Below are positions 90-28,925 of a stretch of 64,000 nucleotides of DNA, in pieces (within the stretch, counting starts at the first letter, position 1; each line of letters starts with the position of its first letter). Below the pieces are notes generated by a model. It did no database searches. It saw nothing but the letters and a program-made list of their open reading frames with translations, and was not told where the DNA came from. A program made the translations under genes and the position numbers. Source of the DNA: a virus (Duplodnaviria; Caudoviricetes); the IMG/VR virus record IMGVR_UViG_3300030098_005649, one strand, 5' to 3'.

Positions 90-1886
90 ATGTTATTACC
101 AACAGAAAAAATTGAACAACACGATAGTGTAGAATTGACAGATTTGGATGGTAATCCATTTCAGTTTAATTATTATAATCTATATAATCACAAATCGATA
201 TTTTTTAAAGATAAGGGATTCAATAGAACAGATGAAGCTTGGGATTCTAACCGACACAACGGAAATTTCTTTTCAGTTGCTCAAGGTAAGAAGAGTGTAT
301 TTCTGATTTATGATTTACGGAGTAATTTACAATATGCAAAAGATTGTATAGCTAGAGGTGTATGTATTAGAGAAGCACAAGAAACAATAGAATATTGTGA
401 AGACTTAATTTCAAGGGGATACGCATATGTTATTGTTGATGGACAGAATAGAGAAACCAATAATACGAAATGGTATGAGGGTGATTTACCAAATACTTCT
501 CAGTATGGTTTCAAATCTTTTCATTCTTTTGTAAACCAAACTGATGTTATAAAAGTAGATGAAGATAGTTTACCAACAAAGAATGGTTCACGAGATGTTT
601 ATTATATACATCCTAATGCAAAACAAATAAGATTAGATAAATGGAGAAGTTTTTTATCTAAGTGTGGTGGTGATAAAGATAAAGCTAAAAAGTTATATAA
701 ACGACAAGGTAAGACTTATACATACGAGTATCCAGCTCCAAAGGATTTTGTTGAGTCATATGATAATCAAGATGTATCAGTACACATAGTTACAAATGCA
801 TTTTACTCACAGATAGAAGGTTTATATTGGAGATATAATAATCAAGACCAGAACAAACCAGTTGAGTTGAGAAATGCAATTCAAGGTAAGTTATCAAATT
901 ATAAAAAGTCATTGATGTGGAATGGTGAAGAAGATAACTTCACCACTATGGCAACAAATCAATTCAAAAAGTATTTACACGACTTTACTATTAAAGGAAT
1001 TGACCCAAGAGACGCTTATTATAATGATAAGATTAGTGATGGTGGTGAAAATCGTATGGGTGGTTTTTTATTAGCAGAAGAAGAGTTTACTTTTCTTGAT
1101 AATCCACATTTATTAGACTCTGCAGATGATGATACATTTAGAGATGTTCTTTATAAATATCATCACAAACTTCCTGATTGGATTGAGACACACAAAAATC
1201 TTGTCCACTTTAGGGCAAATTGTTTTACATCTTATAATCATAGTCAAGCTAAATTTAAAATGAAAAGAAAGAATGCTTTAGATTATTTTATATTTGGATA
1301 TGACTTACAAAATCCAATGGATATGTTTGAAGATTTAAATTTTTCACCACTAAGTTTAGTTCCAGATTCGGTTGTCGATAAAATGACCGATAAGGAAAAG
1401 GACGATTTTTCAGTTAATCCAATTGAAGTTATGGATTATACAGAATTTTCAAAGTGGATTTGTGATGATGTTTTATTAAAAGAGTATGATGAAAAATTAG
1501 ATGACGAAGATAAATGGAATACAGAAACTTCATACTTTAATAGATTGGGTTCTAATAAACATTGGAAGTTGAGAAGAATATTATTTAGAAAAAGATTTCT
1601 TGAAGATATTGGAGATTTATTAGATAGAGGTGTGATTAGAATTACACAAAAGAAAAGAGTTATCTCTGATAAGGATTTTAGAAAACTTGCAAGACAGAAT
1701 AGTATGTTAGATTCTTATGGTAATAAAATTAATTCATTTGAAGATTTATTTAAAGTATATGCTAAAGCACACGGAGAACCATTTTCATTTGGTATCAATA
1801 GGGGTGGAGTAACAACAAAGTCAAATACTGATATTGATACTAAAATAGATAATCAAAAATTAGGAGCAAAATCAAAGTATGTCTAA
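90..1886 (+). CDS. DUF262 (ParB/Srx-like, DGQxR) protein with degenerate C-terminal HNH; GmrSD-like
   Basis: YVIVDGQNR motif; LYWRYNNQDQNKPVELRNAI resembles the DUF262 IFxRLN...ELRNAI block; C-terminal AHGEP..GGVTTKSN..DNQKLGAK resembles an HNH without Zn cysteines. Confidence 0.55.
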   Translation: MLLPTEKIEQHDSVELTDLDGNPFQFNYYNLYNHKSIFFKDKGFNRTDEAWDSNRHNGNFFSVAQGKKSVFLIYDLRSNLQYAKDCIARGVCIREAQETIEYCEDLISRGYAYVIVDGQNRETNNTKWYEGDLPNTSQYGFKSFHSFVNQTDVIKVDEDSLPTKNGSRDVYYIHPNAKQIRLDKWRSFLSKCGGDKDKAKKLYKRQGKTYTYEYPAPKDFVESYDNQDVSVHIVTNAFYSQIEGLYWRYNNQDQNKPVELRNAIQGKLSNYKKSLMWNGEEDNFTTMATNQFKKYLHDFTIKGIDPRDAYYNDKISDGGENRMGGFLLAEEEFTFLDNPHLLDSADDDTFRDVLYKYHHKLPDWIETHKNLVHFRANCFTSYNHSQAKFKMKRKNALDYFIFGYDLQNPMDMFEDLNFSPLSLVPDSVVDKMTDKEKDDFSVNPIEVMDYTEFSKWICDDVLLKEYDEKLDDEDKWNTETSYFNRLGSNKHWKLRRILFRKRFLEDIGDLLDRGVIRITQKKRVISDKDFRKLARQNSMLDSYGNKINSFEDLFKVYAKAHGEPFSFGINRGGVTTKSNTDIDTKIDNQKLGAKSKYV

Positions 1887-4620: not shown

Positions 4621-5394
4621 ATGAAACAATTGACACCAGAACAAATAGTAAATAATTGGAATGAACTGATTCAGTTGATTGAAGGTGAATTCGATGGAGA
4701 GAGAAAAGAAAAACTCTTAGAGATGTATAAATACTTTGAGGATAGAATGTCTATCGCACCAGCTAGTGGTAAAGAACATTACCATAATGCATATGTCGGT
4801 GGTTATGTTGAGCATGTTTTGCATGTTTACAGATGTGCAGTATCTATCAAACAACAATGGGAAGAGAAAGGTGCTACAATAAACTTCACAGACGAAGAAT
4901 TGGCAATGGCGGCTATCCACCACGACTTAGGTAAAGTTGGTGATTTATACAATGAATATTACACACCAAATGAATCAGATTGGCATCGTAAGAATCAAGG
5001 ACTAATATTTTCACATAATGGTGATTTACAATTTATGACTGTTACTGATAGGGCATTGTTCTTATTACAACACTTTGGGATACCATTGACAGAGAATGAA
5101 TACATTGGTTTGAGACTTACTGATGGACTTTATGAAGAGGCTAACAAACCTTATTACATTGGATATTCTCCTGATAGACAACTCAAAAGTAATATTGCTT
5201 ATATATTACATCAGGCAGACTCTATGGCCACTCACATTGAATACGATATGTGGAAAAGAGGAGAAGAGAAAATAACAAAAAACATCAAACAAGTTGTTGC
5301 TAAAGAAGTGAAGAAAGTAGAAAAAGAAGAAAAAGTTGTGACAAAAGGTGCTAACGATTTATTTGATGAACTATTCGGAGATATGGAGAAATGA
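4621..5394 (+). CDS. HD-domain phosphohydrolase
   Basis: APAS..YHNAYVGGYVEHVLHV, AAIHHDLGKVG, LHQAD. Confidence 0.85.
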   Translation: MKQLTPEQIVNNWNELIQLIEGEFDGERKEKLLEMYKYFEDRMSIAPASGKEHYHNAYVGGYVEHVLHVYRCAVSIKQQWEEKGATINFTDEELAMAAIHHDLGKVGDLYNEYYTPNESDWHRKNQGLIFSHNGDLQFMTVTDRALFLLQHFGIPLTENEYIGLRLTDGLYEEANKPYYIGYSPDRQLKSNIAYILHQADSMATHIEYDMWKRGEEKITKNIKQVVAKEVKKVEKEEKVVTKGANDLFDELFGDMEK

Positions 5395-5675
5395 TAGAAT
5401 TACCATTCGTAAATTATATCTTAGGTTTACTAATAATAACAAACTCAGCTTTCATCTATAGTTCAATAAACTTGATGAGAAAGAATGAGAAGTTAGAAGA
5501 TTGGTTGGTAGACCTTGAAAATGATTTACAACAAGTAGAGAACGAAATCACAGAAGCAGACTCATCGGGTGGATTTGCTGCTGATGATGAAGTTGGAACG
5601 ATTTGGAGAACGATAAAAACTTCTCTAAGGAAATTAGAAAAATACACAAAGGGAGATAATATAAATGCCTCGTAA
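5391..5675 (+). CDS. Small protein with N-terminal TM helix and coiled coil
   Basis: Hydrophobic residues ~5-27 followed by heptad-like acidic helix; ATGA overlap with the upstream gene. Confidence 0.6.
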   Translation: MIELPFVNYILGLLIITNSAFIYSSINLMRKNEKLEDWLVDLENDLQQVENEITEADSSGGFAADDEVGTIWRTIKTSLRKLEKYTKGDNINAS

Positions 5676-24678: not shown

Positions 24679-25713
24679 ATGGCAACATTCAAAACAATAG
24701 AAAGTGTAGTACCAAGTCAAAGAAGTACAGTTTCCGCGGGTATATGGAGTGGTGGAACAGGTACACTTACTACATTTTTCATAAACACAACACAATCTGG
24801 ATCGAGTGGTAATTACTACTACGATGTTTATAAGGATAACCCAGCAACTGATACCACCGCAACCGCTCAGTTTGGGATTACTTATGGACATTTTCAAGGT
24901 AGTGGTTCATTCAACACAGTAGATGGTAATAATCCAAGTAAGGCAATTTACAGACAATTGTCAAATGTCTTATTATCTCCTGGTGGGAATCGTAGATTCA
25001 AAATCACCAAAGGTGGAACTGTAACAGACTTTGATGGTCTATATGCTATAGTACTGAATAGGTCTCGTATGAGAGAAAAGATGGATCCAGGTAATTGGGA
25101 ACTTCGTCTTTCTGGTAGTTTCGGAGCAACTGCAGCAGATAATGGTATCGTAAAACTAATTGACGATAGTAATGCTACAACAGACCCAAGTGTCGCAAGA
25201 ACACAAACGGTATTCAATGTTGTTAGTGGTTCTATTGCAAGTGGTGATTCTGTATTTGATAGTGATACCAATCCACTTGGTTTATTTTTTCCAAATCACG
25301 GAATTATTGTTCTATCTCAAGATGAGTTAGGTGGTAGATACGATGTATCTGAAATAAATCCAATCAATTTTGCAGCTTCTTCTTCAAATGCAAATGACAA
25401 TAATGCATTCAAATTATTTAGTCAAGTTTCTGCATCACAATACTTTGTGGCAAGAAGAGAAGAGTCTGTAAAATCTACACATTATTTCTGTAGGGTGAAT
25501 CACGATGAGTTCAATTATAGTTCTAATCCAACTTATCAAACTGGTAGTGGTGATTTTGTAGTACCATCTTTCAAACAAGACCCAAAGGCATACATAACTA
25601 CTGTCGGTCTTTACAATGAGAGTAATGACTTATTAGCTGTGGCTAAGTTGAGTCAGCCGATATTGAAATCAAGTGCGAGAGAAGCAGTAATAAAGGTACG
25701 ATTAGATTTCTAA
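24679..25713 (+). CDS. Tail/baseplate structural protein
   Basis: C-terminal YITTVGLYNESNDLLAVAKLSQPI..IKVRLDF shared with the next gene. Confidence 0.65.
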   Translation: MATFKTIESVVPSQRSTVSAGIWSGGTGTLTTFFINTTQSGSSGNYYYDVYKDNPATDTTATAQFGITYGHFQGSGSFNTVDGNNPSKAIYRQLSNVLLSPGGNRRFKITKGGTVTDFDGLYAIVLNRSRMREKMDPGNWELRLSGSFGATAADNGIVKLIDDSNATTDPSVARTQTVFNVVSGSIASGDSVFDSDTNPLGLFFPNHGIIVLSQDELGGRYDVSEINPINFAASSSNANDNNAFKLFSQVSASQYFVARREESVKSTHYFCRVNHDEFNYSSNPTYQTGSGDFVVPSFKQDPKAYITTVGLYNESNDLLAVAKLSQPILKSSAREAVIKVRLDF

Positions 25714-26923: not shown

Positions 26924-28216
26924 ATGAAATACGGTTTACTAATTACACTATTGACTTCTTCTTTGTTGTTTGGTGAAAACGAAATTTGGAAGTTTTTTAA
27001 ATACTCTACTGCGTATGGTAGTTTCAGTTTAAATGCACCACGATATCAAGACGATAGATTTGCAATAACTGGTGGATTATCTACAGGAGCACTTGAGGTA
27101 AAAAGAACTGAAAGAGAATTGAAACCTGATTTCCAAACATCTTTTGGTCTTCGTAAGATAGGTAGATTCCAATACGAACCAAAGAGAGGTGTAAAGTCTG
27201 CTGGTAAGGGTGGAACTTGGTATGATGGTTCAGAACAAAATGCAAATGAAAGTGCTACATTCGGACCTGTAAAGGGATGGGAGTATCTCATCAAATTTTC
27301 TGAGGGTAGACAATGGGGTAATGATTATAAAAACCAAGAGTTTTGGGTAAGATATATTGGACAATATCTAATGGCTAAAATTGGTTGGACAGATTTAGGT
27401 CTTGAAGATATTAGTTATGGTCAAGGTGATATTAGATTACATCTAACACCTGAGGTATTGGGAAACAAACTACATTTTTCTATTGGTGCTAAACACAGAC
27501 AACATCCTGTATATGGATTCGATGCTATGGTATTGGATACAACTTGGTATAAAGGACAATGGTGGAATTTTGCAGAAGATGCTTTTGGTATCGATGATAA
27601 TATGTGGTATGACCCAACAATGCAAGATGAAGACGGAAATTGGATTCATCAAGATTTATATGAAGTAGATCCTGTAACAGGTGAACTTAGACTCATAGAA
27701 GGTGACGGCCCTTTTTGGAATGAAGGTGGACAATATTGGGGACACGATTGGTTGTGGAGAGATGAGAATGGTAGAATATTTGCATATACCGATAGAGAAT
27801 ATTTCTTATATCATTTTCCTGGTATGTTAGAGGAATATGTAGATGGTGTAAAGAAAGACTTAGGTTATCAGAGTGAAACATCTTTAGTATTAGGTATTGA
27901 TTTTTATCATTATGGTGAGAATTGGTGGATACATACTTGGGGTAATTGGATGCCTGTTCATTATGGTCATTCAAAACACGCATACCATAACGCAGCTCAT
28001 TACCAAACTCACTTAGAAGAAGGTAGACCTGCTCATAAATTTATGTATATGGAGCCAATGTGGCATGATTGGAATGATTATGATGTTGGTGCTATATTTG
28101 GTGTAAAACTAAAAGACAACTTAGGAGTATTTACTGAGGGTAGATATTTATATTATTGGGAACGACCAGCATATGATGTGAAGTTTGGTATAAACTATCA
28201 ATTTGTAGGTTGGTAA
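26924..28216 (+). CDS. Secreted Trp/Tyr-rich protein, predicted outer-membrane beta-barrel
   Basis: Sec signal peptide MKYGLLITLLTSSLLFG; alternating amphipathic strands; C-terminal YDVKFGINYQFVGW beta-signal-like end. Confidence 0.6.
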   Translation: MKYGLLITLLTSSLLFGENEIWKFFKYSTAYGSFSLNAPRYQDDRFAITGGLSTGALEVKRTERELKPDFQTSFGLRKIGRFQYEPKRGVKSAGKGGTWYDGSEQNANESATFGPVKGWEYLIKFSEGRQWGNDYKNQEFWVRYIGQYLMAKIGWTDLGLEDISYGQGDIRLHLTPEVLGNKLHFSIGAKHRQHPVYGFDAMVLDTTWYKGQWWNFAEDAFGIDDNMWYDPTMQDEDGNWIHQDLYEVDPVTGELRLIEGDGPFWNEGGQYWGHDWLWRDENGRIFAYTDREYFLYHFPGMLEEYVDGVKKDLGYQSETSLVLGIDFYHYGENWWIHTWGNWMPVHYGHSKHAYHNAAHYQTHLEEGRPAHKFMYMEPMWHDWNDYDVGAIFGVKLKDNLGVFTEGRYLYYWERPAYDVKFGINYQFVGW

Positions 28217-28229
28217 ATAGGAGAATCTG

Positions 28230-28301
28230 ATGTCCGAATGTGGATGTAAAGACTGTATTTGCAATGGTGGATGTATGAATTGCAAATGTTGTAAGTGTTA
28301 G
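28230..28301 (+). CDS. Metallothionein-like micropeptide MSECGCKDCICNGGCMNCKCCKC (23 aa, 9 Cys), absent from the ORF track
   Basis: AGGAG SD at 28219-28223, ATG 28230, TAG overlapping the next gene's SD; fills the whole intergenic gap. Confidence 0.75.
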   Translation: MSECGCKDCICNGGCMNCKCCKC

Positions 28302-28310
28302 GAGATAAAA

Positions 28311-28925
28311 ATGAATCACGAAGAAGTATATAATGTAGTAAGAACGATTTGTGGCTCAATATTGTTATCAACAATGTTTTTGATGTCAAGTTGTGAGGAC
28401 GACAAAGTAGAAGAACCATTAGTCGAAAGTATTGAGATGTGGGTAAATGGTGCAGAGATTGTAGCTCGTGAATATTACGAGAGTATAACCTCATATGGAG
28501 CATCCTCAGTACAAGAAGATGGTTCTATAAAAAAAGTATTTGTATTACACTTCCAAAGGGAAGATGGTAGAGTTACACCTGAGAAAGAACATTACGCTTT
28601 GATTATGTATGATAATGATGGTGCAGATAATGGACAACTGATAGATGAAAAATTGTACATAGGTGGAACAGCGGTTGATTCACTTAGACCTGATTTACTT
28701 GAAAGTACAAGTGGTAGGGTAACATTAGAGATTGTTGGTCTATCTGATTTTACAGAATTTGGTCAAGGTGCAATCACTAAGTATGAGGATGGACTTGTTG
28801 ATGGTATGGTAGATGGTTACTTCTTCAATCCTTACAGAAATGAAATGCAACACGGTATAATTATTTTCGAGAACTTAGAAGTAGGTACAGATCCTGAGGC
28901 TACTTTTTATCAAGGAGTTTATTAG
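28311..28925 (+). CDS. Lipoprotein
   Basis: Hydrophobic stretch ending in lipobox-like LMSS-C followed by EDDK. Confidence 0.7.
   Translation: MNHEEVYNVVRTICGSILLSTMFLMSSCEDDKVEEPLVESIEMWVNGAEIVAREYYESITSYGASSVQEDGSIKKVFVLHFQREDGRVTPEKEHYALIMYDNDGADNGQLIDEKLYIGGTAVDSLRPDLLESTSGRVTLEIVGLSDFTEFGQGAITKYEDGLVDGMVDGYFFNPYRNEMQHGIIIFENLEVGTDPEATFYQGVY

Follow-up and report, generated by a model that had tools for sequence, protein, structure and literature searches.

We identified a 23-codon gene, missed by gene finders, that encodes a peptide with 39% cysteine in an ocean phage. The gene belongs to a conserved, undescribed family of tiny cysteine-skeleton peptides found in abundant ocean phages. 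Based on sequence evidence alone, its predicted product most likely binds metal ions like a miniature metallothionein, a reading to which we give a probability of about 0.5.

The nine-cysteine micro-ORF and its genomic context

The window analyzed here is a 64,000-nt stretch of viral DNA (IMG/VR record IMGVR_UViG_3300030098_005649). A first-pass annotation made from the sequence alone had pointed to an unannotated 23-aa, nine-Cys ORF with its own Shine-Dalgarno (SD) sequence and a stop codon overlapping the next SD. This observation was confirmed. The micro-ORF encodes MSECGCKDCICNGGCMNCKCCKC, which contains no F, W, Y, or H, and the relevant features are as follows:

26924..28216 (+), upstream 430-aa gene with a signal peptide, an outer-membrane-barrel-like C-terminus (...YQFVGW), a conserved His-rich motif, and no Cys
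28219..28223 (+), SD sequence AGGAG of the micro-ORF, with a 6-nt spacer to the ATG
28230..28301 (+), micro-ORF of 23 codons (ATG at 28230, TAG at 28299-28301), with the skeleton CxCxxCxC-x3-C-x2-CxCCxC
28300..28304 (+), SD sequence AGGAG of the downstream gene, formed by the micro-ORF stop codon and the following GAG, 6 nt before the next ATG
28311..28925 (+), downstream 204-aa gene with a lipobox (LMSSC followed by EDD), a predicted lipoprotein

Such an ORF is not expected by chance. With a TGY trinucleotide frequency of 0.023, the probability of finding at least 9 TGY in 22 codons is 7e-10 per start, or about 9e-5 expected in the window. The long ORFs of the window hold only 99 Cys in 18,582 residues (0.53%). 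A scan of the window plus 58 related loci (506 kb, both strands) found hydrophilic, ATG-led, Cys-rich micro-ORFs only in this module, the other hits being antisense or hydrophobic and almost all with TTG starts. The claim that standard gene callers miss the gene also held, as none of six family peptides of 20 aa or more is an exact entry among about 15 billion predicted proteins.

The window derives from a large T4-like uncultured marine myovirus. All long ORFs are on the + strand, and the GC content is about 33%. PHROG hits include a baseplate wedge, a portal, and an SbcC-like nuclease, and the portal is 55% identical to those of Flavobacterium phage vB_FspM_immuto and Microcystis phage Mel-JY01. 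An SD-like motif precedes 31 of the 54 long ORFs (57%), compared with 9% of random positions. Neither the 430-aa protein, nor the lipobox protein, nor the other neighbors matched Pfam or PHROG families in any informative way, and the 430-aa gene had no match in cultured phages. In the 204-aa protein, the lipobox Cys is followed by acidic residues (C-E-D-D-K-V-E-E), a feature conserved in relatives (SCEDD/SCDDR). This resembles the surface-export signals of Bacteroidota lipoproteins and could hint at the host.

The stretch is widespread, as at least 14 marine metagenome runs from several studies contain most of it. Contigs of three metatranscriptome runs from three studies (28166-28395, 28134-28284, and 28158-28321) span the micro-ORF and both gene junctions without any difference inside the micro-ORF; only parts of the stretch covered by such contigs were interpreted. 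As the depth is only 2-4 and DNA carry-over cannot be excluded, this is weak support for co-transcription and none for translation.

Conservation and selection in related phages

The 430-aa protein was used as a synteny anchor and retrieved 58 IMG/VR loci at 71-100% identity (below, L numbers denote retrieved loci and G numbers denote contigs). Of the 47 loci judged, namely those with a complete gene and enough flank, the window included, 29 carry an SD-led Cys-rich micro-ORF and 18 lack it, indicating that the gene is dispensable. In the window's lineage (group A), these comprise 22 unique peptides of 11-43 aa with 4, 6, 7, 8, 9, or 17 Cys (33-56%). All are on the coding strand, and an (A)GGAG located 6-9 nt upstream is present in nearly all 33 catalogued homologous micro-ORFs. 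They occupy three slots of the same module: before the 430-aa gene, after it, or after the lipoprotein gene. At least five different genes follow them, and the distance from the micro-ORF stop to the next start is -14 to +58 nt across all catalogued relatives, mostly 0-28. A second anchor, the 225-aa membrane protein, gave the same picture. On a tree of the 430-aa protein, the micro-ORF occurs on both sides of the midpoint root and is missing from several clades. A read-through fusion to the downstream gene was rejected because, although the next ATG is in frame in the window, the spacing is often not a multiple of 3 across relatives.

The loci without a micro-ORF have abutting genes or a Lys/Arg-rich small ORF in the slot. 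The slot corresponding to 28217-28310 of the window holds other small ORFs in relatives (L013, L014, L021, L030, L032, and L041, at about 5290-5450; L006 and L008). One is a roughly 50-aa Lys/Arg-rich ORF (MPNRTAKDRKRKR...), and another is a 64-66-aa signal-peptide protein with a poly-Lys tail, making this slot a hotspot for small accessory genes. In addition, both ends of the 120-kb contig G003 (IMGVR_UViG_3300030085_004215; loci L012 and L058) lie in the 430-aa gene region but carry different arrangements, one with a micro-ORF before the gene and none after, the other with one after. This suggests a circularly permuted assembly that joins two strain variants.

The 430-aa protein carries a His-rich motif, H[YF]GH..[HY].YHN..HY..H, with 4-6 His at residues about 345-362 (+ strand gene 26924-28216), which may be a metal site. 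This motif is conserved in all 47 relatives and does not track the presence of the micro-ORF. All but two of these proteins (L021 and L030, 2 Cys each) contain no Cys.

Several results point to selection on the encoded peptide. In cleanly alignable pairs, Cys codons show 43 identical, 3 synonymous, and 0 non-synonymous states (0/46), while other codons show 48, 12, and 12 (12/72; Fisher p = 0.003). TGY triplets fall 183:19:7 by frame. In a clade whose 430-aa proteins differ by 4% or less, the peptides already differ by substitutions and by indels of 3, 9, and 3 nt, all of which keep the frame, while the 36 nt upstream are almost invariant. Non-Cys residues are 87% D/E/N/G/K/S/Q/T, compared with 53% in the phage proteome, and F/I/L/M/V/W/Y make up 9% compared with 32%, with F, P, and W absent. 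Family-wide, 3 Y and 1 H occur among 211 non-Cys residues. The frame, the cysteines, and a hydrophilic filler composition are thus selected, while the exact sequence is free.

A tRNA-Cys(GCA) gene was found in 3 of the 4 lineage contigs that hold any tRNA (L232:1500-1574 (-), L233:1500-1571 (-), and L234:1501-1575 (+); contigs G003, G006, and G009). These contigs carry only 1-2 tRNAs, and tRNA-Cys is the sole tRNA on the contig with the 17-Cys peptide, although the proteomes are only 0.5-1.1% Cys. This is circumstantial and may reflect demand from the Cys-rich peptides or replacement of a host tRNA-Cys. The link is not strict, as one contig with tRNA-Cys (82 kb, about 45% complete) shows no micro-ORF. 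On another contig of this lineage (G005), ARAGORN predicted a candidate tmRNA-like gene (L231:218-620 (+), tag peptide EYDYSPMVAVTNDEPTYAYA) next to a tRNA-Gly.

A wider family with a fixed cysteine skeleton

A scan of IMG/VR for an SD followed by M-C-x-C-x-x-C-x-C returned at least 118 loci. Fifty-one of those returned were micro-ORFs of 60 aa or fewer with at least 30% Cys, and they fall into recurrent subfamilies.

Group B (19-20 aa, nine Cys) occurs in more distant relatives of the same phage group, in which homologs of the window genes at 24679 and 25732 are 32-50% identical. Here the micro-ORF directly follows a 289-aa signal-peptide protein with a barrel-like C-terminus, and a membrane protein and a lipoprotein come next, the same position and architecture as in the window. 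The 289-aa and 430-aa proteins have no detectable similarity (E = 0.62), and the membrane proteins match only weakly (E = 0.002). Since this set was partly defined by its own pattern, we resampled it through the 289-aa neighbor. All 11 loci retrieved carry a nine-Cys micro-ORF immediately after it, including one whose neighbor is only 39% identical. The shared skeleton is CxCxxCxC-x(2,3)-C-x(1,2)-CxCCxC, in SD-led ORFs of about 19-23 codons. The window peptide fits it (spacing 2-3-2-4-3-2-1-2), as do group B (2-3-2-3-2-2-1-2), L571 (2-3-2-4-2-2-1-2), and L575 (2-3-2-3-3-2-1-2). The 43-aa, 17-Cys form (L035:5298-5426:+) is a tandem duplication of the unit. In groups A and B, successive Cys are separated by 0 residues 39 times, 1 residue 128 times, 2 residues 30 times, and 3 residues 13 times; the spacing is more variable in the window's own lineage.

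A sister class, group D, contains fourteen six-Cys peptides of 14-18 aa (CxCxxCxCxPCxC, for example MCKCKDCNCKPCTCK) that share the spacing 2-3-2-3-2 with an invariant Pro. They lie in other phages, on contigs unrelated to the window, and often overlap the stop codon of a phage iscU gene (NifU_N, Pfam E about 1e-50), with a terminase-like gene coming next (L269:1443-1860 (+); also L365-L374, L339, and L349). When IscU loci were sampled independently, 10 of 80 carried such a micro-ORF on the same strand, six of them overlapping the iscU stop by 8-14 nt. No cultured phage was found to carry the module of the window or a close marine iscU.

Two further groups came from the same scan. A micro-ORF class with a Cys-rich N-terminus and a conserved polar tail (for example MCGCNDCNCGCSTINITY and MCCCVDCKCSCCTNHIAD; L336:1552-1608 (+), L311, L323, L254, L281, and others) lies about 950 nt (center to start) from homologs of the window gene at 4621-5394, in phages of 37-41% GC, and may be a different family. 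A 68-86-aa Cys-rich protein family (starting MCTCPECGCCCDYGRECC...) recurs in many viral contigs of 52-62% GC (L252, L257, L290, L301, and about 25 more loci).

Other searches were less informative. A tblastn search of the 23-aa peptide against cultured phages, with the low-complexity filter on, found nothing. The generic pattern CCxCCxCxCxC in IMG/VR was swamped by TGC/TGT simple repeats and recovered only one true family member. ESM Atlas look-alikes of the 43-aa form scored 0.80 or less and comprised unnamed clusters only. A protein homolog search with the 43-aa form gave two near-identical 43-aa entries and, among longer proteins, one 104-aa variant (P0003, on a 592-nt ENA contig) in which the ORF has lost its stop codon and reads into a downstream DUF1330 (PF07045) protein. 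This is an isolated case and not a general fusion. A partial scan of cellular genomes for MCxCxxCxCxxCxC returned mostly noise, with at least one CxPC-type peptide on a Saccharibacteria MAG contig and a conserved 12-codon ORF (MCRCSPCGCHAC or close variants) behind an almost identical upstream sequence in four Rhizobiales genomes (L467, L493, L538, and L561), without a visible SD.

Possible functions of the peptide

The first-pass annotation had equated the nine Cys with the M3Cys9 cluster of the mammalian metallothionein beta domain and proposed a minimal viral metallothionein. This interpretation is partly supported. The peptide has metallothionein-type properties: small size, very high Cys content, CxC, CC, and CxxC motifs, almost no aromatic residues, and Cys conserved in register while other residues vary (PMC4101491, PMC1808422). 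The nine-Cys count is not a coincidence of this one phage either, as it recurs in the 11 group B loci. However, the variable Cys count in the window's own lineage means that an M3Cys9 cluster is not a general rule, and no single cluster stoichiometry is conserved there. The peptide is not a sequence member of any metallothionein family, since no Pfam family (including Metallothio* and SmtA/BmtA PF02069) was matched at E<=10 by the window peptide or by three of four relatives tested. The fourth, L016, gave Metallothio_Euk at E=0.49, with 10.8 bits against a cut-off of 22. No PDB sequence matched at E<=10. No metal sensor, metalloregulator, or transporter was found within about 6 kb, a linkage that is common but not obligatory for metallothioneins.

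In our favored view, the ORF is a real protein-coding micro-gene, co-transcribed and translationally coupled with a set of envelope-targeted late genes. Its product would be a 23-residue cytoplasmic peptide whose only conserved feature is the nine-Cys skeleton, with thiolates wrapped around a small cluster of soft metal ions (Zn(II), Cu(I), Cd(II), or possibly Fe). Short 4-Cys relatives would hold one ion or act as oligomers, and the 17-Cys form would hold two clusters. The existence of the gene, its conservation, the selection on its frame and Cys codons, the skeleton, and its presence on RNA-library contigs are established by our analyses, while translation, metal binding, the identity of the metal, and the benefit to the phage are inferred. 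That benefit could be to buffer or deliver scarce trace metals to phage or host metalloproteins, or to withhold them from the host, during late infection. This reading draws on the fixed Cys spacing with free hydrophilic filler, the lack of aromatic residues, growth by module duplication, odd Cys numbers, and the lack of a signal peptide, which together match the definition of metallothioneins (PMC4101491, PMC1808422). It also draws on the coding selection, independence from any one downstream gene, the iscU-associated sister class, which ties such peptides to metal-sulfur metabolism, and, circumstantially, the tRNA-Cys genes of the lineage.

Among known systems, the Tetrahymena metallothioneins of subfamilies 7a/7b are built from the elementary blocks CKCXXCKC and CXCXXCXCCK (PMC1808422), which equal the phage core CxCxxCxC and resemble the C-terminal CxCCxC. 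Both grow by tandem duplication of Cys modules, both have Lys next to Cys, and in both the Cys stay in register while other residues vary. The Tetrahymena proteins, however, are eukaryotic, consist of many 27-59-aa modules, and are metal-inducible with measured Cd/Cu responses, whereas the phage peptides are single units of 11-43 aa with no shown homology and no shown metal response. Short fungal Cu(I)-thioneins of the Neurospora crassa type (Lerch 1980, cited in PMC6337107) and mycobacterial MymT (4.9 kDa, Cys-X-Cys, 4-6 Cu(I); PMC6337107) are also very small, single-domain, dominated by CxC, and devoid of aromatic residues. The Neurospora-type peptides have about 25 aa and 7 Cys. These proteins show that peptides of this size can form a metal-thiolate cluster, but they are cellular, copper-regulated, and experimentally shown to bind Cu(I). 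No sequence relationship was found, and the phage peptides have more Cys per residue and acidic or amide filler residues. The beta-domain of vertebrate metallothionein, which forms a trinuclear thiolate cluster (PMC4101491), has nine Cys in about 25-30 residues with CxC and CC motifs, but its spacing differs, it is half of a two-domain protein, and the match in number holds only for the nine-Cys subfamily.

It remains possible, though less likely, that the peptide is made and selected for a role other than metal storage or buffering, such as a thiol/redox buffer, a small adaptor or inhibitor docking (perhaps through one metal ion) onto a phage or host protein of the envelope module, or a virion-packaged peptide. 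The micro-ORF is persistently linked to an envelope-targeted gene set in two module versions whose barrel-like genes share no detectable similarity, it evolves rapidly compared with its neighbors, and no metal-homeostasis genes were found nearby. However, this link is by position only. Without a signal peptide, the product is predicted to stay in the reducing cytoplasm while the neighboring proteins are exported, and a conserved Cys skeleton in known biology means metal-thiolate or disulfide chemistry.

A cysteine-sensing leader, in which ribosomes would stall on Cys codons when charged tRNA-Cys is scarce and change translation of the downstream gene, is unlikely. Mycobacterial polycysteine short ORFs are proven Cys-responsive attenuators (bioRxiv 10.1101/834739) and are likewise unannotated, very short, Cys-rich, and upstream of operon genes, and the tight coupling to the next gene keeps this reading alive. 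Those ORFs, however, are leaderless, come first in cysteine-metabolism operons, act through an RNA duplex that hides the next ribosome-binding site, and need only 2-3 consecutive Cys codons. The phage micro-ORF is SD-led and internal to an operon, and the genes that follow it (a lipoprotein, membrane proteins, or a barrel-like protein) differ among relatives, with none related to sulfur. The surrounding RNA has no unusual structure (MFE -17.4 kcal/mol against a shuffle mean of -17.39; z = 0.0), the downstream SD is unpaired, and no terminator was found. The window peptide has one CC pair, some relatives have CC or CCC, and the 4-Cys forms have none. Fixed Cys spacing, hydrophilic filler, and the invariant Pro of the sister class are not needed for stalling, and the lineage brings its own tRNA-Cys.

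A RiPP precursor or a disulfide-knotted secreted peptide is more doubtful still. Many RiPP cores are Cys-rich, and the class with a polar tail described above lies next to another gene in other phages. However, the Cys skeleton starts at residues 2-4, leaving no leader peptide, no radical-SAM, cyclodehydratase, DUF692, or other maturase was found within about 6 kb, the odd Cys counts (7, 9, and 17) do not fit all-paired disulfides, and there is no signal peptide, which does not fit a secreted peptide. Finally, a non-functional, slippage-prone TGT-rich stretch, which the variable length, fast evolution, and absence from 18 of 47 loci might suggest, is contradicted by the conserved Cys codons, the frame-keeping indels, the SD and ATG, the hydrophilic composition, and the skeleton retained at 39% neighbor identity.

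We found no paper describing phage-encoded metallothionein-like peptides. Metallothionein-like peptides are already known; those described here differ in being viral, minimal, and unannotated. If the peptide binds metals, it would be among the smallest gene-encoded metallothionein-like molecules and the first family of this kind assigned to viruses. The finding also shows a systematic blind spot, as these genes fall below gene-caller length limits, while the conserved skeleton gives a simple search key and the peptide is short enough for chemical synthesis. A broader and more tentative reading is that abundant ocean phages of several unrelated lineages carry a hidden class of 11-43-residue cysteine-skeleton peptides, located next to envelope modules in myoviruses and coupled to iscU in another phage group, that would act as virus-encoded trace-metal or metal-sulfur handlers during infection. 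Since trace metals limit marine microbes, a phage-encoded metal buffer would be a new type of auxiliary metabolic gene, one that could influence Zn/Cu/Cd/Fe partitioning in infected marine bacteria.
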